Assembly: GCA_964016885.1 (NCBI GenBank)
Contig: OZ024741.1
Coordinates: forward strand, 23,498,001-23,562,000
Length of the DNA stretch: 64,000 nucleotides
Reading direction: 5' to 3'
DNA from: Eledone cirrhosa
Taxonomy: Eukaryota
A program made the translations under genes and the position numbers. A model generated the notes under the pieces. That model worked only from the letters and a program-made list of their open reading frames with translations. It was not told the DNA's origin and searched no databases. Positions 20,056 through 55,200 of this stretch are shown in pieces. The first letter of the stretch is position 1. Each line of letters begins with the position of its first letter.

Positions 20056-20256
20056 TTAACCCTTTAGCATTTAAACCGGCTGTATCCAGCCAGAATTTTC
20101 TCACCTCTTTACTGGCCACTCATACTGATATTAAGTTATTGTTTTCAAAATGAATAATAGTAATAAAATCTCATAGATTCAATATTATGTGAGGTAAAGC
20201 CTTTACCATGAAAATATAATAGTATATGTAGAGTAATGAAAATGCTGATGGGTTAA
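20056..20256. mobile_element. About 200-bp TTAA-flanked piggyBac-type MITE (family M1)
   Basis: TTAA|CCCTTTAGCATTT ... AAATGCTGATGGG|TTAA ends; homologous to 60452-60657 and to the ends of 38391-41105. Confidence 0.85.
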
Positions 20257-25992: not shown

Positions 25993-26880
25993 TTTTTAAT
26001 GATTTTAATTATTGTAAACAGTCTTAGTGTAAATGTAAATAACATTTAATCTGTTATGTCAGTGTTAAAAATCACTCCAGTTTCAGTGCAGGAACTGTAT
26101 TCATTGGTTAATGTAAAGTATTTGAGGATGTTATTCTATTGTAGGGGAACTTAAAAGAAACTCAATGTCAGAAATTCCTATAGGGCAGTGTTTCTCAAAG
26201 TGGGCTCTGCAAAAAATATCTGGGGTTCTATGAAATAGTGCCATTTAATAGTTTCATTAACATTTTTTTTATGAATAAATTTTCCTTAAAACAATTTTTG
26301 TTTCATTTAATATCGTATTAAGATTAGAGTGGTGGGTATTGTTTGGTTGGTATATTAAACATCATTTCTCTCCCTGTCTAGACAGTAAGCCATAAGAAAC
26401 TATAATAGAATAGAAGTAATCCTTTGTTTGTTTTTTGCTTCTTCTGCAAATATTTAGCATTAATTGCTTTTGTTTGAGTTTTACAATTATACAAGTCTAC
26501 CATAGCACTCTTACATCTACACCTAGTCACAATACAAAGCTGTTTATTTCAAAGACTTAATATTTATCTAAAACCCTTTCATCATAATTTTATGAAAGGA
26601 ATCAAAACACTTCATTTCAGGTTGTGCCAGTCAACTCAACTGAAAATGATTACTAGTAGCAACTGGGTGTTAATCCTATAATGGTGTGACGTCCTATCCA
26701 GGGATGAGTTTTGTACTTTTAGTTGCTCAATACCAATGAAACTGGGATAAGCTCAGGCTTTAACTTTTAGCCCTGTGAAATGATCCTTTCTTTTATTAGT
26801 CATTACTATATTTCTATATATATTTCAAAGTTGTACTTGTTTGACAAGTACATGCCTTTCATTTTGAGGGAGAAGCCTTT

Positions 26881-27630
26881 TACTGCCACTGCTAGCTGCA
26901 AAAGGCTTCTCCCACAAAATGAAAGGCAGACTGTATGATGCATGTATCCGAACAGCAATGTTACATGGTAGTGAGACCTGGGCGCTGAAGACTTAGGTAG
27001 ATTAGAAAGAAACGAAGCCTGCATGCTCCGATGGATGTGTAATAGTAATATACGCAAAGCATAGATGAATTGAGAGGGAGACTGAGCATAAGAGGAATCA
27101 AATACTGTGTGCAGGAGAGGCGGTTGCGTTAGTATGGACATGTGATGCATATGAAGGATGACAGCTGCATAAAAAGGTGCGGAGTGGGGAGACCCAAGAA
27201 GACCTGGGATGAGGTGATAAAAGCCGACCTTATCCAATTACACCTCTCAAAGGCGATGACACACGACCGTAACCTCTGGCATCACGCAGTAATACAGAGT
27301 ACCCGACCTCCCATGGGTACAAGCTGAAGCATATAGACAATATGCCCCCACACCCTCCCACTGCAAAGTGGTCGTGGAGGTGCCATGGCAAAAAAGCACC
27401 CAGCCCACACTGTAAAGTGGACGTGTAGGCGCCACGGAAAAAAGCACCCAACACTCACTGTAAATGAGGTTGGTGTTAGGAAGAACATCCAGCTGTAGAA
27501 ATCAAGCCAAAATCAGTTCCTGTATGAGCAAGGCATGGTCAGCCGACCAGACACTGCCCACTACAGGACAACCCGTCTAACCCATGCTAGCATGGAAGAA
27601 CGGACGTAAAACGGTGATGATGATGATGAT
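26881..27630 (+). mobile_element. 5'-truncated RTE LINE 3' fragment with frameshifts and a (GAT)n tail
   Basis: Highly similar to 49303-50093, with small internal deletions; ends in CGGACGTAAAACGGT(GAT)n. Confidence 0.93.
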
Positions 27631-28299: not shown

Positions 28300-31200
28300 A
28301 GTGTATTCTACCATGACACCAGCACTATCACTTTACATAGTGTACTGGGTGTATTCTACCATGACACCAGCACTATCACTTTACAGAGTGTACTGGGTGT
28401 ATTCTACCATGACACCAGCACTATCACTTTACATAGTGTACTAGTGTATTCTACCATGACACCAGCACTATCACTTTACAGAGTGTACTAGTGTATTCTA
28501 CCATGACACCAGAACTATCACTTTACATAGTGTACTAGTGTATTCTACCATGACACCAGCACTATCACTTTACATAGTGTACTAGTGTATTCTACCATGA
28601 CACCAGCACTATCACTTTACAGAGTGTACTGGGTGTATTCTACCATGACACCAGCACTATCACTTTACAGAGTGTACTGGGTGTATTCTACCATGACACC
28701 AGTACTATCACTTTTCAGAGTGTACTGGGTGTATTCTACCATGACACCAGCACTATCACTTTACAGAGTGTACTGGGTGTTTTCTACCATGACACCAGCA
28801 CTATCACTTTACAGTGTGTACTGGGTATTTTCTACCATGACACCAGCACTATCACTTTACAGAGTGTACTGGGTGTTTTCTACCATGACACCAGCACTAT
28901 CACTTTACAGAGTGTACTGGGTGTTTTCTACCATGCAACCAGCACTATCACTTTACAGAGTGTACTGGGTGTATTCTACCATGACACCAGCACTATCACT
29001 TTACAGAGTGTACTAGTGTATTCTACCATGACACCAGCACTATCACTTTACAGAGTGTACTGGGTGTTTTCTACCATGACACCAACACTACCACTTTACA
29101 GAGTGTACTGAGTGTATTCTACCATGACACCAACACTATCACTTTACAGAGTGTACTGGGTGTTTTCTATCATGACACCAGCACTATCACTTTACAGAGT
29201 GTACTGGGTGTATTCTACCATGACACCAGCACTATCACTTTACAGAGTGTACTGGGTGTTTTCTACCATCACACCAGCACTATCACTTTACAGAGTGTAC
29301 TGGGTGTTTTCTACCATGACACCAGCACTATCACTTTACAGAGTGTACTGGGTGTATTCTACCATGACACCAGCACTATCACTTTACAGAGTGTACTAGT
29401 GTATTCTACCATGACACCAGCACCATCACTTTACATAGTGTACTGGGTGTATTCTACCATGACACCAGCACTATCACTTTACAGAGTGTACTGGGTGTTT
29501 TCTACCATGACACCAGCACTATCACTTTACAGAGTGTACTGGGTGTATTCTACCATGACACCAGCACTATCACTTTACAGAGTGTACTAGTGTATTCTAC
29601 CATGACACCAGCACTATCACTTTACAGAGTGTACTGGGTGTATTCTACCATGACACCAGCACTATCACTTTACAGAGTGTACTGGGTGTATTCTACCATG
29701 ACACCAGCACTATCACTTTACATAGTGTACTAGTGTATTCTATCATGACACCAGCACTATCACTTTACAGAGTGTACTGGGTGTATTCTACCATGACACC
29801 AGCACTATCACTTTACAGAGTGTACTAGTGTATTCTACCATGACACCAGAACTATCACTTTACATAGTGTACTAGTGTATTCTACCATGACACCAGCACT
29901 ATCACTTTACATAGTGTACTAGTGTATTCTACCATGACACCAGCACTATCACTTTACAGAGTGTACTGGGTGTATTCTACCATGACACCAGCACTATCAC
30001 TTTACAGAGTGTACTGGGTGTATTCTACCATGACACCAGTACTATCACTTTTCAGAGTGTACTGGGTGTATTCTACCATGACACCAGCACTATCACTTTA
30101 CAGAGTGTACTGGGTGTTTTCTACCATGACACCAGCACTATCACTTTACAGTGTGTACTGGGTGTTTTCTACCATGACACCAGCACTATCACTTTACAGA
30201 GTGTACTGGGTGTTTTCTACCATGACACCAGCACTATCACTTTACAGAGTGTACTGGGTGTATTCTACCATGACACCAGCACTATCACTTTACATAGTGT
30301 ACTAGTGTATTCTACCATGACACCAGCACTATCACTTTACAGAGTGTACTGGGTGTATTCTACCATGACACCAGCACTATCACTTTACAGAGTGTACTAG
30401 TGTATTCTATCATGACACCAGCACTATCACTTTACAGAGTGCACTGGGTGTATTCTACCATGACACCAGCACTACCACATTACAGAGTGTACTGGGTGTT
30501 TTCTATCATGACACCAGCACTATCACTTTACAGAGTGTACTAGTGTTTTCTACCATGACACCAGCACTATCACTTTACAGAGTGTACTGGGTGTATTCTA
30601 CCATGACACCAGCACTATCACTTTACAGAGTGTACTGGGTGTTTTCTACCATAACACCAGCACTATCACTTTACAGAGTGTACTGGGTGTATTCTACCAT
30701 GACACCAGCACTATCACTTTACAGAGTGTACTGGGTGTTTTCTATCATGGCAGCAGCACTATCACTTTACAGAGTGTACTGGGTGTATTCTATCAGGACA
30801 CCAGCACTATCACTTTACAGAGTGTACTGGGTGTTTTCTATCATGGCACCAGCACTATCACTTTACAGAGTGTACTGGGTGTTTTCTATCATGGCACCAG
30901 CACTATCACTTTTCAGAGTGTACTGGGTGTATTCTACCATGACACCAGCACTATCACTTTACAGAGTGTACTGGGTGTATTCTACCATGACACCAGCACT
31001 ATCACTTTACAGAGTGTACTAGTGTATTCTACCATTACACCAGCACTATCACTTTACAGAGTGTACTGGGTGTATTCTACCATGACACCAGCACTATCAC
31101 TTTACAGAGTGTACTAGTGTATTCTACCATGACACCAGCACTATCACTTTACAGAGTGTACTGGGTGTTTTCTATCATGGCACCAGCACTATCACTTTAC

Positions 31201-34200
31201 AGAGTGTACTAGTGTATTCTACCATGACACCAGCACTATCACTTTACAGAGTGTACTAGTGTATTCTACCATGACACCAGCACTATCACTTTACAGAGTG
31301 TACTGGGTGTTTTCTATCATGGCACCAGCACTATCACTTTACAGAGTGTACTAGTGTATTCTACCATGACACCAGCACTATCACTTTACAGAGTGTACTG
31401 GGTGTATTCTACCATGACACCAGCACTATCACTTTACAGAGTGTACTAGTGTATTCTACCATGACACCAGCACTATCACTTTACAGAGTGTACTAGTGTA
31501 TTCTACCATGACACCAGCACTATCACTTTACATAGTGTACTAGTGTATTCTACCATGACACCAGCACTATCACTTTACAGAGTGTACTAGTGTATTCTAC
31601 CATGACACCAGAACTATCACTTTACATAGTGTACTAGTGTATTCTACCATGACACCAGCACTATCACTTTACATAGTGTACTAGTGTATTCTACCATGAC
31701 ACCAGCACTATCACTTTACAGAGTGTACTGGGTGTATTCTACCATGACACCAGCACTATCACTTTACAGAGTGTACTGGGTGTATTCTACCATGACACCA
31801 GTACTATCACTTTTCAGAGTGTACTGGGTGTATTCTACCATGACACCAGCACTATCACTTTACAGAGTGTACTGGGTGTTTTCTACCATGACACCAGCAC
31901 TATCACTTTACAGTGTGTACTGGGTGTTTTCTACCATGACACCAGCACTATCACTTTACAGAGTGTACTGGGTGTTTTCTACCATGACACCAGCACTATC
32001 ACTTTACAGAGTGTACTGGGTGTATTCTACCATGACACCAGCACTATCACTTTACATAGTGTACTAGTGTATTCTACCATGACACCAGCACTATCACTTT
32101 ACAGAGTGTACTGGGTGTATTCTACCATGACACCAGCACTATCACTTTACAGAGTGTACTAGTGTATTCTATCATGACACCAGCACTATCACTTTACAGA
32201 GTGTACTGGGTGTATTCTACCATGACACCAGCACTACCACATTACAGAGTGTACTGGATGTTTTCTATCATGACACCAGCACTATCACTTTACAGAGTGT
32301 ACTAGTGTTTTCTACCATGACACCAGCACTATCACTTTACAGAGTGTACTGGGTGTATTCTACCATGACACCAGCACTATCACTTTACAGAGTGTACTAG
32401 TGTATTCTACCATGACACCAGCACTATCACTTTACAGAGTGTACTGGGTGTATTCTACCATGACACCAGCACTATCACTTTACAGAGTGTACTAGTGTAT
32501 TCTATCATGACACCAGCACTATCACTTTACAGAGTGTACTGGGTGTATTCTACCATGACACCAGCACTACCACATTACAGAGTGTACTGGGTGTTTTCTA
32601 TCATGACACCAGCACTATCACTTTACAGAGTGTACTAGTGTTTTCTACCATGACACCAGCACTATCACTTTACAGAGTGTACTGGGTGTATTCTACCATG
32701 ACACCAGCACTATCACTTTACAGAGTGTACTGGGTGTATTCTACCATGGCACCAGCACTATCACTTTACAGAGTGTACTAGTGTATTCTACCATGACACC
32801 AGCACTATCACTTTACAGAGTGTACTAGTGTATTCTACCATGACACCAGCACTATCACTTTACATAGTGTACTAGTGTATTCTACCATGACACCAGCACT
32901 ATCACTTTACAGAGTGTACTAGTGTATTCTACCATGACACCAGAACTATCACTTTACATAGTGTACTAGTGTATTCTACCATGACACCAGCACTATCACT
33001 TTACATAGTGTACTAGTGTATTCTACCATGACACCAGCACTATCACTTTACAGAGTGTACTGGGTGTATTCTACCATGACACCAGCACTATCACTTTACA
33101 GAGTGTACTGGGTGTATTCTACCATGACACCAGTACTATCACTTTTCAGAGTGTACTGGGTGTATTCTACCATGACACCAGCACTATCACTTTACAGAGT
33201 GTACTGGGTGTTTTCTACCATGACACCAGCACTATCACTTTACAGTGTGTACTGGGTGTTTTCTACCATGACACCAGCACTATCACTTTACAGAGTGTAC
33301 TGGGTGTTTTCTACCATGACACCAGCACTATCACTTTACAGAGTGTACTGGGTGTATTCTACCATGACACCAGCACTATCACTTTACATAGTGTACTAGT
33401 GTATTCTACCATGACACCAGCACTATCACTTTACAGAGTGTACTGGGTGTATTCTACCATGACACCAGCACTATCACTTTACAGAGTGTACTAGTGTATT
33501 CTATCATGACACCAGCACTATCACTTTACAGAGTGTACTGGGTGTATTCTACCATGACACCAGCACTACCACATTACAGAGTGTACTGGATGTTTTCTAT
33601 CATGACACCAGCACTATCACTTTACAGAGTGTACTAGTGTTTTCTACCATGACACCAGCACTATCACTTTACAGAGTGTACTGGGTGTATTCTACCATGA
33701 CACCAGCACTATCACTTTACAGAGTGTACTAGTGTATTCTACCATGACACCAGCACTATCACTTTACAGAGTGTACTGGGTGTATTCTACCATGACACCA
33801 GCACTATCACTTTACAGAGTGTACTAGTGTATTCTATCATGACACCAGCACTATCACTTTACAGAGTGTACTGGGTGTATTCTACCATGACACCAGCACT
33901 ACCACATTACAGAGTGTACTGGGTGTTTTCTATCATGACACCAGCACTATCACTTTACAGAGTGTACTAGTGTTTTCTACCATGACACCAGCACTATCAC
34001 TTTACAGAGTGTACTGGGTGTATTCTACCATGACACCAGCACTATCACTTTACAGAGTGTACTGGGTGTTTTCTACCATAACACCAGCACTATCACTTTA
34101 CAGAGTGTACTGGGTGTTTTCTATCATGGCACCAGCACTATCACTTTACAGAGTGTACTGGGTGTATTCTACCATGACACCAGCACTATCACTTTACAGA

Positions 34201-37069
34201 GTGTACTGGGTGTTTTCTACCATAACACCAGCACTATCACTTTACAGAGTGTACTGGGTGTTTTCTATCATGGCACCAGCACTATCACTTTACAGAGTGT
34301 ACTGGGTGTTTTCTATCATGGCACCAGCACTATCACTTTTCAGAGTGTACTGGGTGTATTCTACCATGACACCAGCACTATCACTTTACAGAGTGTACTG
34401 GGTGTATTCTACCATGACACCAGCACTATCACTTTACAGAGTGTACTAGTGTATTCTACCATGACACCAGCACTATCACTTTACAGAGTGTACTGGATGT
34501 ATTCTACCATGACACCAGCACTATCACTTTACAGAGTGTACTAGTGTATTCTACCATGACACCAGCACTATCACTTTACAGAGTGTACTGGGTGTTTTCT
34601 ATCATGGCACCAGCACTATCACTTTACAGAGTGTACTAGTGTATTCTACCATGACACCAGCACTATCACTTTACAGAGTGTACTGGGTGTATTCTACCAT
34701 GACACCAGCACTATCACTTTACAGAGTGTACTAGTGTATTCTACCATGACACCAGCACTATCACTTTACAGAGTGTACTGGGTGTATTCTACCATGACAC
34801 CAGCACTATCACTTTACATAGTGTACTAGTGTATTCTACCATGACACCAGCACTATCACTTTACAGAGTGTACTAGTGTATTCTACCATGACACCAGAAC
34901 TATCACTTTACATAGTGTACTAGTGTATTCTACCATGACACCAGCACTATCACTTTACATAGTGTACTAGTGTATTCTACCATGACACCAGCACTATCAC
35001 TTTACAGAGTGTACTGGGTGTATTCTACCATGACACCAGCACTATCACTTTACAGAGTGTACTGGGTGTATTCTACCATGACACCAGTACTATCACTTTT
35101 CAGAGTGTACTGGGTGTATTCTACCATGACACCAGCACTATCACTTTACAGAGTGTACTGGGTGTTTTCTACCATGACACCAGCACTATCACTTTACAGT
35201 GTGTACTGGGTGTTTTCTACCATGATACCAGCACTATCACTTTACAGAGTGTACTGGGTGTTTTCTACCATGACACCAGCACTATCACTTTACAGAGTAT
35301 ACTGGGTGTATTCTACCATGACACCAGCACTATCACTTTACATAGTGTACTAGTGTATTCTACCATGACACCAGCACTATCACTTTACAGAGTGTACTGG
35401 GTGTATTCTACCATGACACCAGCACTATCACTTTACAGAGTGTACTAGTGTATTCTATCATGACACCAGCACTATCACTTTACAGAGTGTACTGGGTGTA
35501 TTCTACCATGACACCAGCACTACCACATTACAGAGTGTACTGGGTGTTTTCTATCATGACACCAGCACTATCACTTTACAGAGTGTACTAGTGTTTTCTA
35601 CCATGACACCAGCACTATCACTTTACAGAGTGTACTGGGTGTTTTCTACCATAGCACCAGCACTATCACTTTACAGAGTGTTCTGGGTGTATTCTACCAT
35701 GACACCAGCACTATCACTTTACAGAGTGTACTGGGTGTTTTCTATCATGGCAGCAGCACTATCACTTTACAGAGTGTACTGGGTGTATTCTATCAGGACA
35801 CCAGCACTATCACTTTACAGAGTGTACTGGGTGTTTTCTATCATGGCACCAGCACTATCACTTTACAGAGTGTACTGGGTGTTTTCTATCATGGCACCAG
35901 CACTATCACTTTTCAGAGTGTACTGGGTGTATTCTACCATGACACCAGCACTATCACTTTACAGAGTGTACTGGGTGTATTCTACCATGACACCAGCACT
36001 ATCACTTTACAGAGTGTACTGGGTGTATTCTACCATGACACCAGCACTATCACTTTACAGAGTGTACTAGTGTATTCTACCATGACACCAGCACTATCAC
36101 TTTACAGAGTGTACTGGGTGTTTTCTATCATGGCACCAGCACTATCACTTTTCAGAGTGTACTGGGTGTATTCTACCATGACACCAGCACTATCACTTTA
36201 CAGAGTGTACTGGGTGTATTCTACCATGACACCAGCACTATCACTTTACATAGTGTACTAGTGTATTCTACCATGACACCAGCACTATCACTTTACAGAG
36301 TGTACTGGGTGTATTCTACCATGACACCAGCACTATCACTTTACAGAGTGTACTAGTGTATTCTATCATGACACCAGCACTATCACTTTACAGAGTGTAC
36401 TGGGTGTATTCTACCATGACACCAGCACTACCACATTACAGAGTGTACTGGGTGTTTTCTATCATGACACCAGCACTATCACTTTACAGAGTGTACTAGT
36501 GTTTTCTACCATGACACCAGCACTATCACTTTACAGAGTGTACTAGTGTATTCTACCATGACACCAGCACTGTCACTTTACAGAGTGTACTGGGTGTATT
36601 CTACCATGACACCAGCACTATCACTTTACAGAGTGTACTAGTGTATTCTACCATGACACCAGCACTATCACTTTACAGAGTGTACTGGGTGTTTTCTATC
36701 ATGGCACCAGCACTATCACTTTTCAGAGTGTACTGGGTGTATTCTACCATGACACCAGCACTATCACTTTACAGAGTGTACTGGGGGTTTTCTATCATGG
36801 CACCAGCACTATCACTTTACAGAGTGTACTGGGTGTATTCTATCAGGACACCAGCACTATCACTTTACAGAGTGTACTGGGTGTTTTCTATCATGGCACC
36901 AGCACTATCACTTTACAGAGTGTACTGGGTGTTTTCTATCATGGCACCAGCACTATCACTTTACAGAGTGTACTGGGTGTTTTCTATCATGGCACCAGCA
37001 CTATCACTTTACAGAGTGTACTGGGTGTTTTCTATCATGACACCAGCACTATCACTTTACAGAGTGTAC
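28300..37069. repeat. 47/48-bp tandem satellite (GTGTATTCTACCATGACACCAGCACTATCACTTTACAGAGTGTACTGG), about 185 units, intronic
   Basis: Continuous periodicity with 48-bp (CTGGGT) and 47-bp (CTAGT) variants; it fills most of the intron between exons D and E. Confidence 0.98.
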
Positions 37070-37516: not shown

Positions 37517-38037
37517 ATTATTTAGAGTTTTTATTTAATTAATTTACCTTCATTAGGCAGAAATAGTGAACTATTTGCATAATGTCAGCAGAGAAATATC
37601 TATAAAGACCTACATTATCATACGTCCAACCATTCAACAAGATACACCACAAGTATAAACTTTAGAGAATATATCATTGTAACTTCTTCTTCAGTCATGT
37701 TTTGTTGTGCATTGTTGATAATATATTTATATCTACTTACCATACTCGATATGTCAGATAAATAAAGTTTGAGCTTTACACCAGAAAAAGGACGTGTTTG
37801 AAATGTTATGTACAGTTACTATTTTTTAATTTCCAAGTGATTTTAAATAATTCTTTTTTATTTTCTCTTATTATTTAAATGTATTCTGTGATAATAATTT
37901 TCTATCGGCATCACTGAGGATGTTGTGTGGAAATAGAATTATGCATGTATACAGATTGGCAATAAATTACTTATTTTCATTAAAATCTCTGTTTGATGAT
38001 ACTCAAGAAACTAAATGTCATTAACCTCTTTTGATAG

Positions 38038-38328
38038 TGAAGATGCATGGCTTTGTGGTTAGGGTATTCGGCTCACAATTGTAAAGTGGTGGTGCGATGT
38101 ATCCTTGAGCAAGACACTTTATTTTCGTGTTGCTCCATTCCACTCAGCTGGCAAAAATGAGTTGTACCCGTAATACAAAGGGTCAGCCTTGTCCACACCA
38201 AATCTCCCTGAGAACTATGTTATTGGTACGGGTGTCTGTGGAATGCTCAGTCACTTGCACATTAATTTCACAAGCAGGCTGTTCCATTGATCAACTGGAA
38301 CACTTGTCGTAACCGACGGAGTGACAGT
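38038..38328 (+). mobile_element. tRNA-derived SINE (second family)
   Basis: A-box-like GCATGGCTTTGTGGTTAGGG and core TCCTTGAGCAAGACACTTTATTT..CACTCAGCTG, shared with 58250-58400 and 61262-61400. Confidence 0.7.
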
Positions 38329-38390
38329 CAGTCAACCTCTTTCAATACGAAACTACCAGAAACCAGTTCTACAATACAAAGCTGTTTGTC

Positions 38391-41105
38391 TTAATCCTTT
38401 AACATTTAATCCGGCCAGAATTGTCTCACCTCTTTCTGTTCAAACCAACTGTAACCGGCAGCTCATACTGACGTTAAGGTATTGTTTTCAAAATCTCTAT
38501 ATTATGTGAGATAATTATGTAAGGTAAAGACTTTACCACAAAATACAATTGTGTATGTAGAGTAATGTAAATGTTATGTGAGATAATTATGTAAGGTAAA
38601 GACTTTACCACAAAATACAATTGTGTATGTAGAGTAATGTAAATGTTATGTGAGATAATTATGTAAGGTAAAGACTTTACCACAAAATACAGTTGTGTAT
38701 GTAGAGTAATGTAAATGTTATGTGAGATAATTATGTAAGGTAAAGACTTTACCACAAAATACAATTGTGTATGTAGAGTAATGTAAATGTTATGTGAGAT
38801 AATTATGTAAGGTAAAGACTTTACCACAAAATACAGTTGTGTATGTAGAGTAATGTAAATGTTATGTGAGATAATTATGTAAGGTAAAGACTTTACCACA
38901 AAATACAATTGTGTATGTAGAGTAATGTAAATGTTATGTGAGATAATTATGTAAGGTAAAGACTTTACCACAAAATACAATTGTGTATGTAGAGTAATGT
39001 AAATGTTATGTGAGATAATTATGTAAGGTAAAGACTTTACCACAAAATACAGTTGTGTATGTAGAGTAATGTAAATGTTATGTGAGATAATTATGTAAGG
39101 TAAAGACTTTACCACAAAATACAGTTGTGTATGTAGAGTAATGTAAATGTTATGTGAGATAATTATGTAAGGTAAAGACTTTACCACAAAATACAGTTGT
39201 GTATGTAGAGTAATGTAAATGTTATGTGAGATAATTATGTAAGGTAAAGACTTTACCACAAAATACAGTTGTGTATGTAGAGTAATGTAAATGTTATGTG
39301 AGATAATTATGTAAGGTAAAGACTTTACCACAAAATACAGTTGTGTATGTAGAGTAATGTAAATGTTATGTGAGATAATTATGTAAGGTAAAGACTTTAC
39401 CACAAAATACAGTTGTGTATGTAGAGTAATGTAAATGTTATGTGAGATAATTATGTAAGGTAAAGACTTTACCACAAAATACAGTTGTGTATGTAGAGTA
39501 ATGTAAATGTTATGTGAGATAATTATGTAAGGTAAAGACTTTACCACAAAATACAGTTGTGTATGTAGAGTAATGTAAATGTTATGTGAGATAATTATGT
39601 AAGGTAAAGACTTTACCACAAAATACAGTTGTGTATGTAGAGTAATGTAAATGTTATGTGAGATAATTATGTAAGGTAAAGACTTTACCACAAAATACAG
39701 TTGTGTATGTAGAGTAATGTAAATGTTATGTGAGATAATTATGTAAGGTAAAGACTTTACCACAAAATACAGTTGTGTATGTAGAGTAATGTAAATGTTA
39801 TGTGAGATAATTATGTAAGGTAAAGACTTTACCACAAAATACAGTTGTGTATGTAGAGTAATGTAAATGTTATGTGAGATAATTATGTAAGGTAAAGACT
39901 TTACATACACAACTGTATTTTGTGGTAAAGTCTTTACCTTACATAATTATCTCACATAACATTTACATTACTCTACATACACAACTGTATTTTGTGGTAA
40001 AGTCTTTACCTTACATAATTATCTCACATAACATTTACATTACTCTACATACACAACTGTATTTTGTGGTAAAGTCTTTACCTTACATAATTATCTCACA
40101 TAACATTTACATTACTCTACATACACAATTGTATTTTGTGGTAAAGTCTTTACCTTACATAATTATCTCACATAACATTTACATTACTCTACATACACAA
40201 CTGTATTTTGTGGTAAAGTCTTTACCTTACATAATTATCTCACATAACATTTACATTACTCTACATACACAATTGTATTTTGTGGTAAAGTCTTTACCTT
40301 ACATAATTATCTCACATAACATTTACATTACTCTACATACACAATTGTATTTTGTGGTAAAGTCTTTACCTTACATAATTATCTCACATAACATTTACAT
40401 TACTCTACATACACAATTGTATTTTGTGGTAAAGTCTTTACCTTACATAATTATCTCACATAACATTTACATTACTCTACATACACAACTGTATTTTGTG
40501 GTAAAGTCTTTACCTTACATAATTATCTCACATAACATTTACATTACTCTACATACACAACTGTATTTTGTGGTAGAGTAATGTAAATGTTATGTGAGAT
40601 AATTATGTAAGGTAAAGACTTTACCACAAAATACAGTTGTGTATGTAGAGTAATGTAAATGTTATGTGAGATAATTATGTAAGGTAAAGACTTTACCACA
40701 AAATACAATTGTGTATGTAGAGTAATGTAAATGTTATGTGAGATAATTATGTAAGGTAAAGACTTTACCACAAAATACAATTGTGTATGTAGAGTAATGT
40801 AAATGTTATGTGAGATAATTATGTAAGGTAAAGACTTTACCACAAAATACAATTGTGTATGTAGAGTAATGTAAATGTTATGTGAGATAATTATGTAAGG
40901 TAAAGACTTTACCACAAAATACAGTTGTGTATGTAGAGTAATGTAAATGTTATGTGAGATAATTATGTAAGGTAAAGACTTTACCACAAAATACAATTGT
41001 GTATGTAGAGTAATGTAAATGTTATGTGAGATAATTATGTAAGGTAAAGACTTTACCACAAAATACAGTTGTGTATGTAGAGTAATGTAAATGTTAAAGG
41101 GTTAA
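38391..41105. mobile_element. M1 piggyBac-type MITE inflated to 2.7 kb by internal tandem amplification
   Basis: TTAA|TCCTTTAACATTTA left end, TAAATGTTAAAGGG|TTAA right end; the first ~105 bp align to 20056 and 60452. Confidence 0.9.
38497..41096. repeat. 72-bp tandem satellite, about 36 near-identical units, with an inverted block at 39905-40572
   Basis: Unit TTATGTGAGATAATTATGTAAGGTAAAGACTTTACCACAAAATACARTTGTGTATGTAGAGTAATGTAAATG; only one A/G polymorphism seen; orientation is +/-/+. Confidence 0.97.
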
Positions 41106-41227: not shown

Positions 41228-42275
41228 TGGAAGACGCCCCAGCTGACAGCGCCCTCCTTAGACAGCTTTTCTTTTCAAGGCAACCCCCCCGGTGTTCAGG
41301 CGATTTTAGCGCCTATGATGGAGTCTACCACAGTCGACCAGCTAGCAGCTTCGGCCAACAAAATTATAAGTTTCACTGGAAACCCTGCCTCCTATGTTGC
41401 ACCTCAGCCACCAACTGCGGTCTCTTCGTTCTCCCCTGCCTCCTATGTTGCACCTCAGCCACCAACTGCGGTCTCTTCGTTCTCCCCTGCCTCCTATGTT
41501 GTACCTCAGCCACCAGCGGCAGTCTCTTCGTTCTCCCCTGCCTCCTATGTTGCACCTCAGCCACCAGCTGCGGTCTCTTCGTTCTCCCCTGCCTCCTATG
41601 TTGCACCTCAGCCACCAGCTGCGGTCTCTTCGTTCTCCCCTGCCTCCTATGTTGCACCTCAGCCACCAGCTGTGGTCTCTTCGTTCTCCCCTGCCTCCTA
41701 TGTTGCACCTCAGCCACCAGCTGTGGTCTCTTTGTTCTCCTCTGCCTCCTATGTTGCACCTCAGCCACCAGCGGCGGTCTCTTCGTTCTCCCCTGCCTCC
41801 TATGTTGCACCTCAGCCACCAACTGCGGTCTCTTCGTTCTCCCCTGCCTCCTATGTTGCACCTCAGCCACCAGCTGTGGTCTCTTCGTTCTCCCCTGCCT
41901 CCTATGTTGCACCTCAGCCACCAGCTGCGGTCTCTTCGTTCTCTCCTGTCTCCTATGTTGCACCTCAGCCACCAGCTGCGGTCTCTCCTGCCTCCTTCGT
42001 TGCACCTCAGCCACCGGCTGCAGTCTCTTCGTTCTCTGCAGCAGCTGCCGTCCACACCGATCACTCACGTGTGTCTGTGGCAATACTTCAAGCCATAGAG
42101 CAACTCACCAAAGAGGTGAGACAATTGAGTACCTCCAGGGCTCAATCGCCCAGACGTCGCTTCCAGAGCCGTTCGGCGCCACACAAGCAAACCAGGACTG
42201 TGCTACTACCACAGTCGTTTTGGCACGGCGGCACGCTCTTGTAACCAGCCCTGTTCGTTTTCCATCCAGGGAAAC
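41228..42275 (+). pseudogene. gag: Gypsy gag C-terminal part, frameshifted
   Basis: LLRQLFFSR..GVQAILAPMMESTTVDQLAASANKI and the C-terminal CYYHSRFGTAARSCNQPC motif lie in different frames. Confidence 0.75.
41384..42037 (+). repeat. 51-bp coding-phase tandem repeat (PASYVAPQPPAAVSSFS) x about 13 inside gag
   Basis: 51-bp periodicity that preserves the gag frame (ORF 41315-42244). Confidence 0.93.
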
Positions 42276-42313
42276 GGATTTCAGGAGACCTGAACACGGC
42301 ACAGTCTCCTCTG

Positions 42314-45200
42314 ATGCTCCCAAATAATTGTGCGTTCTTTATAACTGACACGTTTTCCCAAGCTCGATGTCTTGTGGATACAGGCGCTGCTTGCAGCATA
42401 TGGCTGCTAAAACTTCTCAAAGAGAAGCCGCCAGTTTCATCCATTTCTCTGCAAGCCGTAAATCATTCTCCTATCTCCACGTATGGTCAAATTTCTCGTT
42501 CTTTGAACCTGGAATTGCAAAGAGACTTCACGTGGATTTTCACGGTCGCTGATTTGCCTACCCTATTCTAGGCTTGGATTTCCTGCACCACTATAACCTC
42601 TTACTGGATATGCGCAGACGACGGTTGTTGGATGCTAATACGGAACTCTCCGTTCCGGGTTTGAAATCTACTGTCTCATCTATCAGCCCGGTATTCTTCA
42701 TCGCCGCTTCAGAGGACCCTTTCCAGTCGCTTTTAAATTCCTTCCTGGAATTGACAAATTTTAATTTTGTGCTGAGCAAGCCTACTCCCTCCACAAAACA
42801 TTATATCGAAACTTCTGGCGCTCCTGTATTTTCTCACCCTCGCCGCCTCCCTGCAGAGAAATTGAAAGCAGCAAAGGCTGAATTTAACCACATGCTACAG
42901 CTGGGGATCATACACCCATCCTCAAGTCCGTGGGCCACTCCTTTGCATTTGGTTCCGAAGCGTTCCGGTGATTGGCGTCCCACTGGGGACTTTCGCCGGT
43001 TAAACGCGATGACGGTACCCGATGGCTACCCGATCCCACACATACAAGATTTCGCGTCTTCGCTTCATGGATGTAAGAGATTCTCCAAATTGGATTTGGT
43101 CAAGGCTTACCACCAGATTCCAATGAACCCGGCAGATATACCTAAAACTGCCATAACAACTCCTTTCGGAGCGTTCGAATTTCTGACTATGCCTTTCGGT
43201 TTGCGAAACGCAGCCAGTACTTTCCAATGTTTCATGGATGAAGTTGTGCGAGATTTTGACTTCGTGTATAACTACATTGATGACATTCTCGTAGCAAGTG
43301 CCTCACCCGAGGAACATGTCACTCACCTCCGTCTACTGTTTGAGCGGTTTCAGCCCGGCGAAATGTGTTTTCGGTGCGTCTTCACTTGTCTTCTTGGGCC
43401 ATGTTATCAGCCCTGAGGGAATCTTACCACTGCCTGACAAGGTGAAAGCTCTGCAAGACCTTCAACCACCCACTTCACTTCGCCAGCTACGACATTTCCT
43501 TGGTCTGTTGAACTACTACAGACGTTTTATCCCACACTGTGCGGATCTCCTGTCTCCTTTATCCGACCTGTTACGTAACAGGAAAAGGAAAAATGAATCC
43601 ATCACACTGGACACGAGTCAGCTAAAAGCCTTCAACGAAGTGAAGCAGAAACTCGCGGAGACATCACTGCTTGTACATCCTATGTCTGGTGTCCAGTTTT
43701 CACTGGTCGTTGATGCATCGGGCACAGCTGTAGGTGCAGTTTTGCAACAGCATCACTAACAACAACTACAACCTCTCGCGTACTTCTCGAGACTACTGAA
43801 ACCGGCAGAGACACGATATAGCACGTTCGGCCGTGAACTCCTGGCTATGTACCTCGTAGTGAAACACTTTCGACATTCACTGGAGGGTCGTCAATTTGTG
43901 ATCTACACTGATCATCGTCTGCTTACGTTCGCACTGCGTTCTAAGCCGGATAAATATTCACCTCGCGAAACTCATTTGGACTTTGTTTCGCAATTTACCA
44001 GCGATATCCGACACATCTCCGGTGAGCAGAGTGCGGCGGCAGATGCCTTGTCTCGCCTCCCAATCAATTCCCTGTCATCACCTTCGGATATTGACCTTCA
44101 ACGGATGGCCACAGATCAGCCACCCCTGGACACCTTGGATCTTTCGTCTCCTGAATTTGCAACTGGCAAATTTTTATATCAACCTGTGCCCACTTCGGAC
44201 ACACAGATTATTTGTGACACCTCGACGAATTCACCTCGTCCTCTAGTTCCAGCGACTCATCGTCATGCAGTTTTCGAGACCTTGCACGGTCTAGCACACC
44301 CTGGCATGTCGACCACAGTGAAGCTCATTTCAGTTAGATACTTCTGGCCGAATATGAGGCGTGACATCACTGTCTGGACACGTTCCTGCTTGTCCTGCCA
44401 GAAGTCAAAGGTGCACAAACAAATACTCGCACCCCTCGGAACTTTCAGCACTCCAGACGCTCGGTTCAGTCATGTCCATATAGATCTCGTTGGGCCATGG
44501 CCGGTCAGCCAAGGATTTACCTATCTCCTGACCTGTATTGATCGCTTCACACGTTGGCCTGAAGCCATTCCTTTAAGTGACATTTCGGCGGAATCTGTAT
44601 CGCGAGCTCTAGTATCGGGTTGGATATCGTGTTACGGAGTTCCAACCACTGTCACCACGGACCGTGGTGGACAGTTTGAGTCCCATCTCTTCCGAGAACT
44701 TTCAAGGATCCTGGGAATTAAGTGCATCCAAACGACTAGCTACCATCCAGCTTCGAACAGAATGATAGAGCGCTTCCACCGCCAATTGAAAGCCGCATTG
44801 CACGCTTATCCGGATCAACAACAATGGAGCGAGTATGTACCAATTGTCCTTCTTGGCTGTCGTGCAGCTATCAGGGAGGATCTAGGATACTCCCCAGCTG
44901 AACTGGTTTACGGAGTACCTATATCTTTGCCGGGTCAGATGTTGACCCCAATGGATTTACCTGAAACAGATCCAGCTCTGTATGTGAACAGACTGCGATC
45001 CTATTTTGGCAATCTTCGGCAACAGACATTGCTTCGTGGACCCACGTCTTTCTATGGAAGGATGCCGTGAGAGCTCCTCTCACGTCACCTTATACCGGTC
45101 CTTATTGTGTGCTTGCACGCACAGATAAACTGTTCACTCTGGACATTGGTGGCAAAAAAGAGACTGTATCCATCGATAGGGTGAAACGGGCCTTTACAGA
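42314..45200 (+). pseudogene. pol: Gypsy pol (aspartic protease, RT, RNase H, integrase) with stops and frameshifts
   Basis: LVDTGA; [34 protein letters not shown]; VDASGTAVGAVL, YTDH; H-x3-H..C-x2-[22 protein letters not shown]; PYTGPY. These are split over ORFs 42314, 42574, 43298, 43847 and 45067. Confidence 0.95.
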
Positions 45201-47195: not shown

Positions 47196-47566
47196 ACATA
47201 CTCAGAGAATTGCAGTAGTGGTTGAAGTGGCGGCATTATCAGTAGGGGTATTGGTTCCTGGAGGTGGCAGTAAGGAGGGCAAAGACTACTTTTGTTTTTA
47301 TTGAACTAAAATATACGTTTCTTCTAGCCATAGAAGATAGCAAATCTCACACACTCATCTACACTTGTCATTACAAAGGATGTCCGCACTCAATGCTGCC
47401 TATGTACCAAGAGGAAGAGAGACAGCCCAAACTTCTGGTGTGATGTCACTGGCCCCTCACTTCCAGCAAGACCTCCCTTGCACCTCCAGTACTCTAGCCC
47501 TACATAAATCCTCAATTACTGAACACACTCTTTGGTATAAAACTTAACTGGTGCTTTTGTTAGGGT

Positions 47567-50099
47567 AGTTAAAGATATTTTACTCAACGCCTACGACAGT
47601 AAAGAAGAACAGATAGAGACATTTAACGTAGAAGAGAACTGGGAGTTCCTAAAAAATAACTTACTAGAGGCGACGGATGAGGTTTGTGGCTGGAGTAAGA
47701 CCTCAAGCAGGAGGAGAGTGACTTGGTGGTGGAACAATAAGGTAGATGAAGCAGTCAAGGCCAAGAGACAGGCATGGAAAGAATGGAAGAACGGGGGGAG
47801 CAGGGTACATTACATAGAGACCAAGAGGGAAGCTAGGCGACAAGTATACTTAGCTAGGAGGGAAGCAGAGGATAGAAAATTCAAGCATGTTTTACAACGT
47901 GAGGACCAGAAACAGGAGGTATTCAAGATTGCGAGGCAGTGTGTCAGAGATAGTTGTGATGTCATTGGAGAGAAGTGTATCCGGAATGATAAAGGTGAGC
48001 TTGCCCTCACAAGTGCTGAGAAGAAAGATGCATGGAAGAGTCATTATGATAGATTACTAAATGAGGAGAATGCATGGGAAGAAGAGACCCTACCCCACGT
48101 AGACCCTATAGAGGGACCAGCAGTACAAGTCAGCGGCAGCGTAGTAAGTAAGGCAATCAGAGATATGAAGATAGGGAAGGCAACCGGTCCATCGGGTATA
48201 GCTGCCGAGATGCTGAAGGCATCTGGGTCTGTAGGTCACACTATAACCACACGTATCGTTAACCAGGTAATACTAGAGGGGGCCATACCAAAAGATTGGT
48301 GCAGTAGCATCATTGTCAACTGCTACAAAGGTAAAGGCGATGCACTAGATAGAGGAAACTATAGAGGTATAAAGTTGATGGACCAGGTCATGAAAGTAAC
48401 AGAAAGAGTTATAGCACAGCTGATTAGGGACCGGGTGAATATAGACGAGATGCAATTTGGGTTTGTTCCAGGGAAAGGCACCACTGATGCGCTCTTCCTT
48501 GTGAGGCAATTACAGGAAAAGTACCTAGCTAAAAGTAAGCCACTCTACTTGGCATTTGTCGACCTTGAGAAAGCCTTTGACAGAGTTCCACGTGCAGTAA
48601 TCTGGTGGGCTCTTAGAAAACTAGGAGTAGATGAATGGCTTGTGAAAGCGGTACAAGCCATGTATAGGGGAGCAGTCAGCAAAGTTAGGATTGGCAATGA
48701 GTATAGCGAGGAATTTAGCGTACAGGTTGGGGTCCACCAGGGCTCTGTTCTTAGCCCTCTCCTGTTCATCATAGTCCTGCAGGCAATAACGGAGGAGTTT
48801 AAGACCGGATGCCCATGGGAACTCCTGTATGCTGATGACCTCGCACTCATAGCTGAATCTATGGTAGAACTAGAGAATAAATTCCAAACCTGGAAGCAGG
48901 GACTAGAGAGAAAGGGCCTCAAAGTCAACATGACAAAGACTAAGGTCCTTATAAGTAGACGAGAAAACAGAACCCAGATCCCCTCAGGGAAATGGCCTTG
49001 CTCAGTATGTAGGAAAGGTGTAGGTAGGAACTCCATTCTTTGCCCCAAATGCAAACAATGGGTACACAAGAGATGTAGCGGGATCTCAGGAAGCTTAATT
49101 AAGAATGTAGGATTCACATGCAGCAGCTGTGCTGAAACAGCAAGCAAACAGCCACAGGAAACAAGTACCACCAATCTCTGGGAGGGCCCTGTAGAAACAG
49201 TAGACAGCTTCTGCTACCTAGGTGACCGAATTAGCAACGGAGGTGGGTGCTCAGAAAGTACAATAACTAGGGTAAGAACGGGATGGAAGAAGTTTAGGGA
49301 ACTACTACCACTGCTAGCTGCAAAAGGCTTCTCCCTCAGAATGAAAGGCAGACTGTATGATGCGTGTATCCGAACAGCGATGTTGCATGGTAGTGAGACC
49401 TGGGCGCTGAAGGTGGAAGACTTACGTAGATTAGAGAGAAACGAAGCCTGCATGCTCCGATGGATGTGTAACAGTAATATACGTGAACGACAAAGCATAA
49501 ATGAATTGAGAGAGAGACTGAGCATAAGAGGAATCAAATGCTGCGTGCAGGAGAGGCGGTTACGCTGGTATGGACATGTGATGCGTATGAAGGATGACAG
49601 CTGCATAAAAAGGTGCAGAGCACTAGAAGTTGATGGAAACCGCGGAGTGGGGAGACCCAAGATGACTTGGGATGAGGTGATAAAAGCCGACCTTACCCAA
49701 CTACACCTCTCAAAGTCAATGACACACGACCGTGACTTCTGGCGTCACGCAGTAATACAGTGTACCCGACCTCCCATGGGTACATGCTGAAGCATATAAA
49801 CAATATGCCCCCCCCCCCCCCACCGCAAGGTGGTCGTGGAGGTGCCACGGCAAAAAAGCACCCAGCCCACACTGTAAAGTGGACGTGTAGGCGCCACGAA
49901 AAAGCACCCAGCACTCACTGTAAATGAGGTTGGTGTTAGGAAGGGCATCCAGCTGTAGAAATCAAGCCAGATCAGTTCCTGTATGAGCAAGGCATGGTCA
50001 GCCGACCAGACACTGCCCACAACAGGACAACCCGTCTAACCCATGCTAGCGTGGAAGAACGGACGTAAAACGGTGATGATGATGATGATGATGAGTTAA
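47567..50099 (+). mobile_element. RTE-clade LINE, 5'-truncated (lacks the APE endonuclease)
   Basis: Open RT frame, a 3'UTR with about 2.5 internal 48-bp units and a (GAT)n tail ending at about 50093. AGTTAA at 47567 and 50094 is a candidate short TSD. Confidence 0.95.
47570..49790 (+). CDS. RTE reverse transcriptase ORF remnant (uninterrupted; no native start)
   Basis: NYRGIKL, QFGF, FVDLEKAFDRV, GVHQGSVLSPLLF, LLYADD, YLG, RLRWYGHV; the frame continues upstream of the ORF-track start (KDILLNAYDSKEE...). Confidence 0.93.
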
Positions 50100-50606: not shown

Positions 50607-50883
50607 CAAAGAAACTTAATGTCATTAACCTCTTTTGATACAAAACTACCAGTGACCAGTTCTACAATACAAAACTGTTTGTCTAAACGAAAATGTCATT
50701 AACCTCTTTTGATGTGAAACTGCCAGAAACTGGTTCTACAAAGAAAACTGTTTGTTTTAAAGAGTTTATACTTACTAAAAACGTTCCATCATAATTTTAT
50801 TGAAGAAACTTCATGTTCCAAAGTCCAGTTTAACAATGAATAAATTATTGATTTTATGAAATTGTTGTAAACTGATAACCTGG
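50607..50883 (-). repeat. M2 repeat copy with a duplicated end; empty-site paralogue of 38004-41227
   Basis: Colinear with 38004-38036, 38334-38394 and 41102-41227. Confidence 0.8.
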
Positions 50884-51396
50884 CTGAAGGCTCCAGTCAG
50901 ACATGACAGCAACTGTAGTAGATGTATATCATTGTAAGTAAATGGAGCAGAGGTTTTGGTGAATTAAATATTTGTTTGTTTTTGTATGGTGTAATTCCTT
51001 TATTGGTTAACTAATTATGCAATCTGCACCTGATGGTGTCACCAGGATCTTAAGTAACCTGGACATTGAAATACATATGTTTTTGCAACAATAAAACTTT
51101 AAAGGAACATCATCAGTCCAGCCTCCTGTTATTTTAATCAAACCAATATTTAACTCTTTTCCTGCACCAACCACAAGATTCAACATCAACCATGGATGAG
51201 TTGTGTAACGTAGAGTGCTTTTCCTACTATTAGATCATGGTTAATAAATGGAATGACCAGTTCTATCCAGTTCTAACCACTAAACATAAATGAATGTATA
51301 TATATATATTGTTCAGAAGAGATTGTTTTGGTAAAAACAGGAGCAAGCAGGAGAAAGCTCTCAACAATCATAGTTTTTAGTTACGATGGAGATTTT

Positions 51397-51679
51397 TATA
51401 AAAATAACAAAATAAGATGCTGAGGTTACATATATTGTTTAATCATTATAATTATTTCCACGGTTCTCCATGCAATCGAGAAGTCCTTCATGCATTTGTT
51501 GTTGTTATGAGAACGGTATCCTCAGATGATATCCGATATGTTTGATATGTCGCTGGCAGGAAAAAACACACGTCCTATTGCTTATGTGCCGTTGGGCACA
51601 CAAGCAATAGGGTGTGAACATAATTATAATGATTAAACGATCTATGTAACCTCAGCATCTTCTTTTGTTATTTTTTATA
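51397..51679. mobile_element. About 283-bp fold-back MITE with about 59-bp TIRs and TA ends
   Basis: 51397-51455 is the near-perfect reverse complement of 51620-51679; there is an internal hairpin at 51574-51611. Confidence 0.85.
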
Positions 51680-52297: not shown

Positions 52298-55200
52298 ATC
52301 ATCATCATCATCATCATCACCGTTTAACGTCCGTGTTCCACGCTTGCATGGGTTTGGACGGGGGTAGTCCCACTTGAGGCAAGAGTGATTGTCTTGCTCG
52401 CATAGGACTGTCTGTCAGGTTTTCTACAGTTGGATGCCCTTCCTAACACCAACCACATTTACAGTGTGGGGCTGGGAGGTTTTTACCGTGTTGCCTACAC
52501 GGCCACATTACAGCGTGGACTGTGTGTTTTTTTTTGTCGTGACACCTACACGATCTCATTTGTTTCGGCCTGGATGGTGTGGCACCAACACAACTTTACA
52601 TAGAACGGGGTGGCGTGGTGGGACGGGGGGGGGGGGGTATTTTGTTAGATGCCTACTGGCTGTAGTAGGTTTTACTTTGTATTTAGGTAAGGCGGGTCTT
52701 CTCTGTTACTGAGTACCGTCAAAGGTCTCGGTCCAGTGACATTGTCTTGGAGAGGTGTAAGTGTGTGAGGTCGGAGTTTATCAGCTCGTCCCAGGTTTTT
52801 CTAGGTCTGCCTATTCCGTGGCTACCGTCTATCTTTATTGCCCTGCACTTTGTTATACAGCTATCGACTTTCATGCGCATCACGTGTCCATACCAACGTA
52901 GCCTTCTCTCGAGTAAACAACATCTGATCCCTCTTATTTCTAACTTTTTCCTTAGTTCGTTTATGCTTTGCCGTTCACGTATATTACTGTTACACATCCA
53001 GCGGAGCATGCAAGCTTCGTTCCTCTCTAGTCTGCGTATATCCTCTGCACACAATGCCCAGGTCTCACTGCCATGCAACATTGCTGTTCGTATGCAGGCA
53101 TCGTACAACCTGCCTTTCATTTTTAGGGAGAACCCTTTAGCAGCTAATAGTGGTATAAGCTCTCTGAACTTTTTCCAACCAGTTCTGACTCTAGCTACTG
53201 TACTTTCAGAGCACCCTCCCCCACTGCTGATTTTATCACCCAGGTAACGGAAACTGTCCACTATTTCTATAGAACCCTCTGCGCAATTGAAAGAGCTAGT
53301 ATTTAGTGGGCACTTGCTGCTACTTATTGCACCAGAGCACCGGCCACATGTAAAATCTATGTTCTTAGTTAGCTTACCTGTGATCCCACTACATCTTTTA
53401 TGCACCCATACTTTGCATTTAGGACATAAAATGGAGTTTCTACCTACGCCTTTCCTACACACCAAGCACGACCATTTCCCAGAAGGGACCGCCGCCTTAT
53501 TTTCTTTCCTACAAACTAGAACTTTAGTCTTAGCCAGGTTAATTTTAAGGCCTTTTGATTCTAGGCCGTGCTTCCATGTTTGGAATTTCTTCTCTAGCTC
53601 GGCCATTGATTCCGCTATGAGTGTCAGGTCGTCTGCGTATAGGAGTTCCCATGGGCAGCCGGTCTTGAACTCCTCTGTTATAGCCTGAAGGGCAATAATA
53701 AATAGTAGGGGGCTGAGAACAGAGCCCTGATGGACGCCAACTTTTACGCTAAACTCTTCACTATATTCGTTGTTAATTCTAACCTTGCTGACTGTTTCTT
53801 TATACATGGCTTGTATAGCTCTCACAAGCCATTCGTCAACGCCTAGTTTTCTAAGAGCCCACCAGATAATGGAGCGGGGGACTCTGTCGAAGGCTTTCTC
53901 CAAGTCGACAAAAGCTAAGTAGAGGGGTTTACCTTTAGTTAGGTACTTCTCCTGTAGTTGTCGTACAATGAAAAGAGCGTCTGTGGTACTTTTGCCTGAC
54001 ACAAACCCGAACTGCATTTCATCTAGGTCAATTCTCTCTCTGATTAGTTGTGCTATTACTTTTTCCGTGACCTTCATGACCTGGTCGATTAATTTAATGC
54101 CTCTATAGTTACTCCTATCTAGGGCGTCTCCTTTACCCTTATAACAGTTAACGATGATGCTGCTATGCCAGTCCTTCGGAACAACCCCATTCTGTACGAC
54201 TTGGTTAACTATGCGGGTGACCATGGTGTGTCCCACCGTGCCAGATGCCTTCAGCATCTCAGCAACTATTTCCGAAGGCCCAGCCACCTTACCCATCTTC
54301 ATATCCTTGATTACCTTACTTATTATACTCCCCTCGACTAACACTGCTGGTCCCTCTATTGGGTCGATATGGGGGAGACTGTCTTTCTCCCATTTATTCT
54401 CCTCATTTAGTAGCCTTTCATAGTGACACTTCCAAGCTACCTTCTTATCAGCGTCGGTGATGGCAAGTGTGCCATCGTCGTTTAGTACACACTTCTCCTC
54501 GACAATATCACGGTTTTCCTCGACGCATTGCCTAGCAATCCTGAACACCTCACGTTTTTGGTCATCGCGTTGTAGAACATGCTTGAACTTTCTTTCCTCA
54601 GCTTCCCTTCTTGCTAAGTACACTTGTCTCCTAGCTTCCCTCCTGGCCACTTGATAGTCTTCTCTACTTCCCCCATCCCGCCATACTTTCCAAGCCTGCT
54701 TTTTGGCCTTAATTGACCCCTCCACCTTACTGTTCCACCACCATGTTACTCTCCTCCTGCCTACAGGCCTGCTCCAGCCACAGACTTTGTCTGTCGCCAA
54801 CAGCAGGTTTGCTTTCAGAAATTCCCACTCTCCCTCTATATTGTCCGACTCTAAATGTTCTTCCTTACTGTCGAAAGCATCAAGTAATATGCTTTGAAAT
54901 TTATTCCTGGCTGTGGGGTCCTTTAGCTTCCATATTTTTCTCCTGAGGATAGTCCTCTTCTGCTGTCGAGTACGTCTCGTCCTGACTATGAGGTCGCTAA
55001 TTATGAGTCTATGTTGGGAGGTGCATTCTTCATGGGGGAGGGATTTAGTGTTTACAACAGACACTCTGTCACGTCTTCTGGTAAGGATATAATCTACCTG
55101 GCTTGTGTGTTCCCCGGATCTATAGGTGATCAGGTGATTGTCACGTTTTTTGAAGTTAGTGTTACAGATAGTTAGGTTATTTGCATCACAGAATTCCAGG

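Follow-up and report, generated by a model that had tools for sequence, protein, structure and literature searches.

A putative piggyBac-type MITE in Eledone cirrhosa expanded by an internal 72-bp tandem array with an inverted block

We analyzed a window of 64,000 nucleotides from Eledone cirrhosa (assembly GCA_964016885.1, contig OZ024741.1, positions 23,498,001 to 23,562,000 of the forward strand); all coordinates below are those of this window. Database comparison of the open frame at 24625-25182 gives one relative, the Octopus vulgaris tyrosine phosphatase domain-containing protein 1, to which it is 50% identical, and six collinear exons of this PTPDC1-like gene, 51-87% identical to the Octopus vulgaris protein, lie between 18164 and 37498. 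By these matches the genome looks octopod-like, though probably not that of Octopus vulgaris. The introns of the gene hold 37-, 41-, 33- and 48-bp tandem arrays together with one copy of a MITE (short for miniature inverted-repeat transposable element). About 0.9 kb after the stop codon begins a 2715-bp expanded copy of that MITE (38391-41105), with candidate poly(A) hexamers at 37761, 37961 and 37979 upstream of it. Because it lies beyond both the stop codon and these hexamers, the expanded element is probably outside the PTPDC1-like transcript. The expanded copy, its surroundings and its relatives are composed as follows:

38331-38390, plus strand: host repeat (older, AT-rich, dispersed), left half; 82-89% identical to the copies at 50627-50755
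38391-38394, no strand: left target site duplication (TSD), TTAA; in the corresponding place, 2 of 3 empty paralogs have one TTAA
38395-38408, plus strand: left 14-bp terminal inverted repeat (TIR); begins with T, against C at the right end and at each of the relatives' four ends
38409-38501, plus strand: left arm of the MITE, unique, homologous to both relatives with indels
38502-39904, plus strand: first forward block of the array, 19 units and 35 bp
39902-40575 (39905-40572 without microhomologies), minus strand: inverted block of 668-674 bp, 9 units and 20-26 bp
40573-41096, plus strand: last forward block, comprising 7 full units and identical to 40029-40552 in reverse complement
41088-41101, minus strand: right 14-bp TIR with its CCC end intact; the closing part of the array period covers its inner 9 bp
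41102-41105, no strand: right TSD, TTAA
41106-41233, plus strand: host repeat, right half; 89% identical to 50761-50889, truncated at 41233 by an LTR-retrotransposon-like fragment
20056-20256, plus strand: unexpanded relative of 201 bp with TTAA at both ends, inside an intron of the PTPDC1-like gene
60452-60657, plus strand: unexpanded relative of 206 bp with TTAA at both ends
50690-50889, plus strand: empty insertion-site paralog, its one TTAA at 50757-50760; both flanks of the element match

The TIRs of the expanded copy are complementary at 13 of 14 positions and disagree only at the outermost base of the left end, where T replaces C. Both of these features, the retention of the two TTAA sites and TIRs and the C-to-T change at the left terminus, had been noted in a preliminary description of the locus and hold on measurement. 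A tolerant search of the window for the TIR joined to TTAA returned seven matches against 0.58 expected from shuffled sequence; six are the ends of the three MITE copies, and the seventh, with three mismatches, lies within an exon. Four other TTAA-bounded inverted pairs (complementary at no fewer than 11 of 14 positions) occur in the window, none of them beginning with C, and the two long ones that span arrays were taken as chance. An exact 21-base match in one bacterial metagenome-assembled genome, the single match among prokaryotic genomes, has no MITE similarity in its flanks and was likewise set aside as chance.

The element interrupts a copy of the host repeat and is absent from all three aligned host-repeat paralogs. 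The paralog at 50690-50889, 89% identical to the right flank and with 82% identity to the left flank in the adjacent copy, runs continuously across the insertion site and has one TTAA there, as does a second, near 23583 on the minus strand; a third, near 26549, carries a one-base variant of TTAA. Because the element is missing from these empty paralogs and one TTAA is preserved in two of them, the flanking TTAA is a true target duplication, and the comparison offers good evidence for a genuine insertion, although the empty sites are paralogs and hence give no date for it.

The two unexpanded relatives are 85% identical to one another, and the expanded element, when reduced to one unit, is ~195 bp long and 80-81% identical to each over aligned columns. 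TTAA stands at both ends of all three copies in the 64-kb window, and the TIRs of the relatives are complementary at 12/14 and 11/14 positions. Five of the six TIRs begin with CCC, four with CCCTTT and none with a purine. At TIR position 8 the expanded copy has A at both ends, where all four ends of the relatives have G. The 201- and 206-bp relatives and the ~195-bp collapsed copy are short (<500 bp) and non-coding, with TIRs and a TSD, as is usual for MITEs. Open frames do run over the array, merely repeating a 24-residue period; a coding role for them was considered and rejected, as they are a by-product of a 72-bp period that happens to be free of stop codons. A Pfam scan of 113 window ORFs (the 110 longest of 158 stop-to-stop frames of at least 55 aa outside five large arrays, plus three overlapping arrays, so that frames of at least ~63 aa were covered) detected no transposase; the only domains found were reverse transcriptase, endonuclease, PHD, RNase H and integrase.

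According to two published sources, piggyBac-like elements are characterized by TTAA duplication, 12-19-bp TIRs and a C-initial motif (PMC5381638), the most conserved end motif being CCCTT (PMC10813416). The preliminary description had assigned the element to piggyBac from its TTAA sites and CCC termini, and this is supported, with the TSD now backed by the empty paralogs and the label itself drawn from the ends alone; we therefore refer to a piggyBac-type non-autonomous MITE in a provisional sense. Derivation from another TTAA-targeting superfamily, Kolobok/T2, is very improbable. Kolobok also duplicates TTAA, and its T2 MITE Xmix bears the Xstir array (PMC6004289), but the Kolobok ends tabulated in that source open with two purines, AG in 10 of 10 elements, whereas here CCC opens five ends of six and matches the favored piggyBac motif (PMC10813416).

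The array occupies 38502-41096 (2595 bp; 36.04 units of 72 bp) and starts 107 bp after the left TIR begins, close to the earlier estimate of about 105 bp. Its last unit is continuous with the right end, also as first described: the period reaches 3 bp (TTA) into the right TIR, and the first unit starts with the same TTA. The monomer aligns to both relatives (87% over 61 bp, E = 2e-15; 78% over 59 bp, E = 3e-7), its positions 14-72 corresponding to their interior as far as the inner portion of the right TIR. This alignment had been named beforehand as the test of whether the monomer came from the interior of the MITE, its junction at a TTA lying within the right TIR, and the collinearity of positions 14-72 with both relatives bears that origin out. 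The accompanying claim that each relative holds a single monomer copy is correct only in part, since monomer positions 1-13 are a copy of positions 14-26 with two differences and are absent from both relatives, which thus hold 59 of the 72 bp. A shared 3-mer was found in 137 of 6018 position pairs 50-100 bp apart (2.3%; a post hoc calculation), and against that background the TTA microhomology at the junction is suggestive.

Growth of a pre-existing satellite that was captured by the MITE, the model described for miDNA4 in Xenopus (PMC12628747), is hardly credible for this locus. In both relatives the interior and right TIR are collinear with the 59 bp, and the remaining 13 bp are a duplicate of adjacent sequence; given this collinearity, capture is largely refuted.

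After correction for orientation, the 36 units vary at unit position 47 only (13 A, 23 G), and the 2595 bp contain neither private substitutions nor private indels (95% upper bound 0.0012 per site). The mismatch between adjacent units is 0.004, against 0.04-0.22 in four other arrays of the window, where the higher values are inflated by indels. The units had been called almost identical, which understates their uniformity; the same account missed an inverted segment at 39902-40575. Since the units are homogeneous while the element is only ~80% identical to its relatives, recent amplification, as previously proposed, is supported. Array turnover erases singletons, so this homogeneity dates the last turnover rather than the first duplication. 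The indels and the 13-bp duplication are common to all 36 units and must therefore predate the amplification. The TSD and TIR pairs of the expanded copy differ by one mismatch in 18 (95% interval 0.001-0.27), and the age contrast between ends and array, with one mismatch and so wide an interval, is weak.

No Rfam family matched at the gathering threshold within 18000-64000. Dimers of the monomer, which contains a 15-bp palindrome at unit positions 22-36, fold modestly better than shuffled sequences (z of -2.6 to -2.8), and we attribute this to internal palindromes rather than to function.

Ten of the 36 unit slots fail to match the monomer in forward orientation, and the array is thus not uniformly head-to-tail. 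Reversing 39902-40575 in silico leaves no mismatches to the period. The monomer contains an interrupted inverted repeat (unit positions 29-35 and 56-62, matching exactly over 3 bp and at 6 of 7 bp overall, with a 20-nt spacer) that adjoins the 15-bp palindrome, and both breakpoints fall in it. The right-hand part of the inverted block and the last forward block form a perfect palindrome, with 524-bp arms (40029-40552 and 40573-41096) on either side of a 20-nt spacer (40553-40572), that ends at the right TIR. At the right junction the pattern of A and G variants is mirrored in 7 of 7 units, for which four post hoc null calculations give a chance of 0.006-0.022; at the left junction the mirror holds for 204 bp only, and 5 of 9 units agree. 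The inverted block is two units longer than the terminal block that it mirrors. We consider the inverted block the most distinctive feature of the expanded MITE.

So exact a mirror is also what a fold-back read would produce, and the inverted block could be a sequencing or assembly artefact, from a fold-back read or mis-mapped polishing, in an array that is in truth plainly head-to-tail. Fold-back artefacts are known in Nanopore and PacBio reads (PMC12870357), and reversed k-mers occur in none of the 10 other arrays of the window. Nonetheless, the block has two reciprocal junctions in exact phase at the same natural interrupted inverted repeat, whereas one fold-back yields one junction; there are no N gaps and no indels in the array, and the flanks are collinear with the empty site. 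Orientation switches in Tribolium satellites have, moreover, been reported as verified on raw HiFi reads (PMC13081366). We judge an artefact unlikely, though a concern to be kept in mind.

If the block is real, two simple origins may be compared. A clean inverted triplication (DUP/IN/DUP) accounts for the short inverted microhomology and short spacer at both junctions (6/7 bp, 20 nt), but it leaves the right flank, despite its 7/7 agreement, two units short, and the left flank agrees in only 5/9 units. A pure in-place inversion requires a prior duplication of nine units whose length coincidentally equals that of the inversion. Neither explains everything without extra gains or losses of units. 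The common denominator of these readings would be template switching at the inverted repeat of the monomer, and arm-to-arm conversion following the inversion is possible.

The expanded MITE lies in a window rich in tandem arrays. Of the 10 others that were tested, six have monomers that match dispersed, non-array copies, chiefly in the host repeat and in the region directly 3' of two LINE open frames; among the rest, a 46-bp monomer resembles those six, a 51-bp array lies in an LTR-retrotransposon-like open frame, and two have no match in the window. None of the 10 is bounded by a C-ended TTAA-TIR pair within the window, beyond which the left end of the 46-bp array lies. Because these other repeat-derived arrays lack such bounds, tandem growth of repeat fragments without transposition is routine in this window.

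We regard the following account, taken whole, as likely: amplification in place within a probably immobile piggyBac-type MITE, followed by inversion through template switching. A ~200-bp MITE inserted at a TTAA of the older dispersed repeat downstream of the PTPDC1-like gene, as the empty paralogs indicate. This copy, or its lineage, acquired indels and the 13-bp internal duplication, the duplicate then diverging at two sites, which can be read directly from the alignment. A 72-bp segment ending in the right TIR would next have been duplicated at the TTA microhomology visible at the junction, presumably by slippage or end-joining repair. Growth to 36 copies could have proceeded by slippage or unequal exchange, recently to judge from the homogeneity and most likely in place. 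Finally, a template switch at the interrupted inverted repeat may have generated the 670-bp inverted block, whose structure is observed. On the best reading, the copy is a minisatellite that arose in a transposon remnant, neutral and locally unstable, with no function of its own.

The left end bears on mobility. The first cytosine of the TIR is highly conserved in piggyBac-like elements (PMC5381638), and in the Trichoplusia ni (T. ni) piggyBac, deletion of the terminal 3' G at one end is reported to have abolished excision (PMC5381638, citing Elick et al. 1997). Because the conserved terminal C of its left TIR is lost, the expanded copy is probably immobile and no longer excisable, by analogy with a case that involved a deletion where the present one is a substitution.

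The competing view is that an array-bearing MITE subfamily transposes with its satellite as cargo, so that an array, short or long, arrived at insertion and would also be present at other TTAA sites. The two TSDs are whole, the TIRs keep 13 of 14 bases, the A common to both ends hints at a distinct subfamily, and the size of 2.7 kb fits the piggyBac-like range, for which a mean of 2.8 kb is given (PMC5381638); Xstir, too, is said to have spread with its TIRs (PMC6004289). Set against these points are the loss of the left terminal C, the occurrence of the array in one of the three copies in 64 kb, the two relatives being single-copy and no other copy bearing an array, and the absence of transposases among the 113 ORFs; furthermore, had the array arrived as it now stands, the sole later substitution would have fallen in the 36 bp of the ends and not in the 2595-bp array. 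We consider cargo transposition unlikely. The preliminary suggestion that the element could move the array is unsupported rather than refuted, since the left C is lost and the window holds no second TIR-bounded array. Growth in place is favored by the dead left terminus, by zero private changes in the array against one in the ends, by the single-copy relatives and by the local habit of tandem growth. The evidence on the origin of the array comes from a single locus.

The A shared by both TIRs may mark a separate, possibly younger subfamily, which may already have carried a short array. Because the variant fits a separate subfamily, the 20% divergence from the relatives need not have accrued in place. 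A bolder version, in which an octopod piggyBac-type subfamily with A-variant TIRs spreads the array to many TTAA sites and the inverted repeat of the monomer repeatedly triggers template-switch inversions at the same two unit positions, is decidedly improbable. If true, it would mean that kilobase palindromes are sown genome-wide, and the steps by which a MITE becomes a mobile satellite and then a macro-dyad could be traced.

Tandem arrays inside MITEs are already established from Xmix/Xstir, miDNA4, DTC84 and Tetris, and reviews list further cases (PMC6947457). Xmix/Xstir of Xenopus, from the T2 family (presumed Kolobok), is likewise a TTAA-targeting MITE with an internal segment amplified in tandem, and its plain, array and composite forms coexist, as single-copy and array forms do here (PMC6004289, PMC12628747). 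It differs in its ends (AGGRR against CCCTTT here; PMC6004289) and in being a large genome-wide family, in contrast to the one array-bearing copy described here, and the inverted block is particular to the present element in that comparison. For miDNA4, a Tc1/mariner MITE of Xenopus tropicalis, the monomer occurs singly or in variable arrays within the MITE, short microhomologies are invoked, and loss of terminal sequence frees the array (PMC12628747, PMC9659126); it belongs to another superfamily, and capture of a pre-existing repeat is proposed for it, whereas the present monomer was cut from the MITE's own interior and TIR. The molluscan DTC84/pearl-like elements of bivalves (DTC84 itself is from a clam) are MITE-like and have internal core repeats, each with a palindrome, and ordered variants. 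They have an AA target duplication, no more than about five 160-bp repeats plus a microsatellite, and a possibly Helitron-like nature (PMC3879986), and their repeats are a family trait, while the present array is known from one copy. In Tetris/TIR-220, a foldback element of Drosophila virilis, up to 66 copies are amplified inside a non-autonomous DNA transposon (PMC4079207); its TIRs are long, modular and repeat-containing, unlike the 14-bp TIRs here, where both ends of the array point in the same direction.

The coral piggyBac-associated CMITEs are likewise short and TTAA/piggyBac-type, with 13-14-bp TIRs, but what is arrayed in tandem there is the whole element instead of an internal segment (PMC2872659). 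Judged by titles and the beginnings of abstracts, the open-access literature yielded no piggyBac-type or cephalopod case of a MITE-internal array. The inverted block resembles the small inverted triplications, which have a forward-inverted-forward order with short inverted microhomology and a short spacer (6-bp junctions and a 30-bp median spacer; PMC13334657), and the satellite macro-dyads of Tribolium, where orientation also switches within arrays (PMC13081366). It departs from both in that the left arm mirrors 5/9 units only, and in being one isolated case, under a kilobase in size, that gives no sign of being conserved.

The locus adds no new mechanism, and nothing suggests a function; it neatly preserves a known route from transposon to satellite DNA rather than presenting a new kind of element. 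Its value lies in an unusually clean snapshot of satellite birth, with target site, both ends, unexpanded relatives and founding junction in one window, accompanied by one marker site from which unit history can be followed and by an inversion whose breakpoints are defined to the base. This makes it a handy locus for testing the origin of the first duplication and of the first inversion in arrays.

Several other repeats of the window are described here in their own right. A family of 46-49-bp arrays (1-18053, 28301-37069, 19152-19454, 27359-27464 and 63125-63322; monomers 70-90% alike) reaches 18 kb and 8.8 kb, far more than the MITE array, and the 8.8-kb member occupies most of the last PTPDC1-like intron. 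For four of the five, matches lie directly 3' of the LINE open frames (49818-49924, 52452-52553), and the 46-bp one is linked through the others; the arrays look like satellites grown from a LINE/SINE tail. Both big arrays (28301-37069 and 1-18053) have signs of higher-order repeats, with secondary identity peaks at lags near 3427 and 4787 bp, and repeated blocks of translated text. At 20509-23206, ~40 bp past the end of an exon, lies a 41-bp array of ~66 near-identical units with no dispersed match in the window.

The host repeat is a dispersed family (23530-23655, 25800-25975, 26530-26600, 50618-50889, 62347-62417) that itself contains small tandem duplications, of 33 bp x 2.8 at 25861 and 74 bp x 1.9 at 50618. 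Certain copies begin near TTAA with a pyrimidine-rich end, the far end not being found, and the family may be an older MITE. In the same host-repeat copy, 60 bp to the left of the expanded MITE, is a ~300-bp insert (38037-38330) with diverged ~14-bp direct repeats and partial matches at 57930-58391 and 61314, which we take to be SINE-like. Starting abruptly 128 bp to the right of the MITE, fragmented LTR-retrotransposon-like sequence (41234-45200) has reverse transcriptase, RNase H and integrase domains in separate frames; no LTR was found for it, and its first open frame contains the in-frame 51-bp array (13 units, 41383-42036).

Elsewhere in the window, a 276-bp MITE-like element at 51400-51675, unrelated to the expanded MITE, has 62-bp inverted ends (92% complementary), and a weaker TTAA-bounded inverted pair lies at 50964-51153. 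The two LINE open frames face each other at 52719-55781 (minus strand) and 47541-49790 (plus strand). The former is an uninterrupted 1020-aa frame with endonuclease, reverse transcriptase and PHD domains, and on that ground may have been active recently; a homolog search with its protein returned 205 relatives, the best 120 of the 205 being 35-54% identical.
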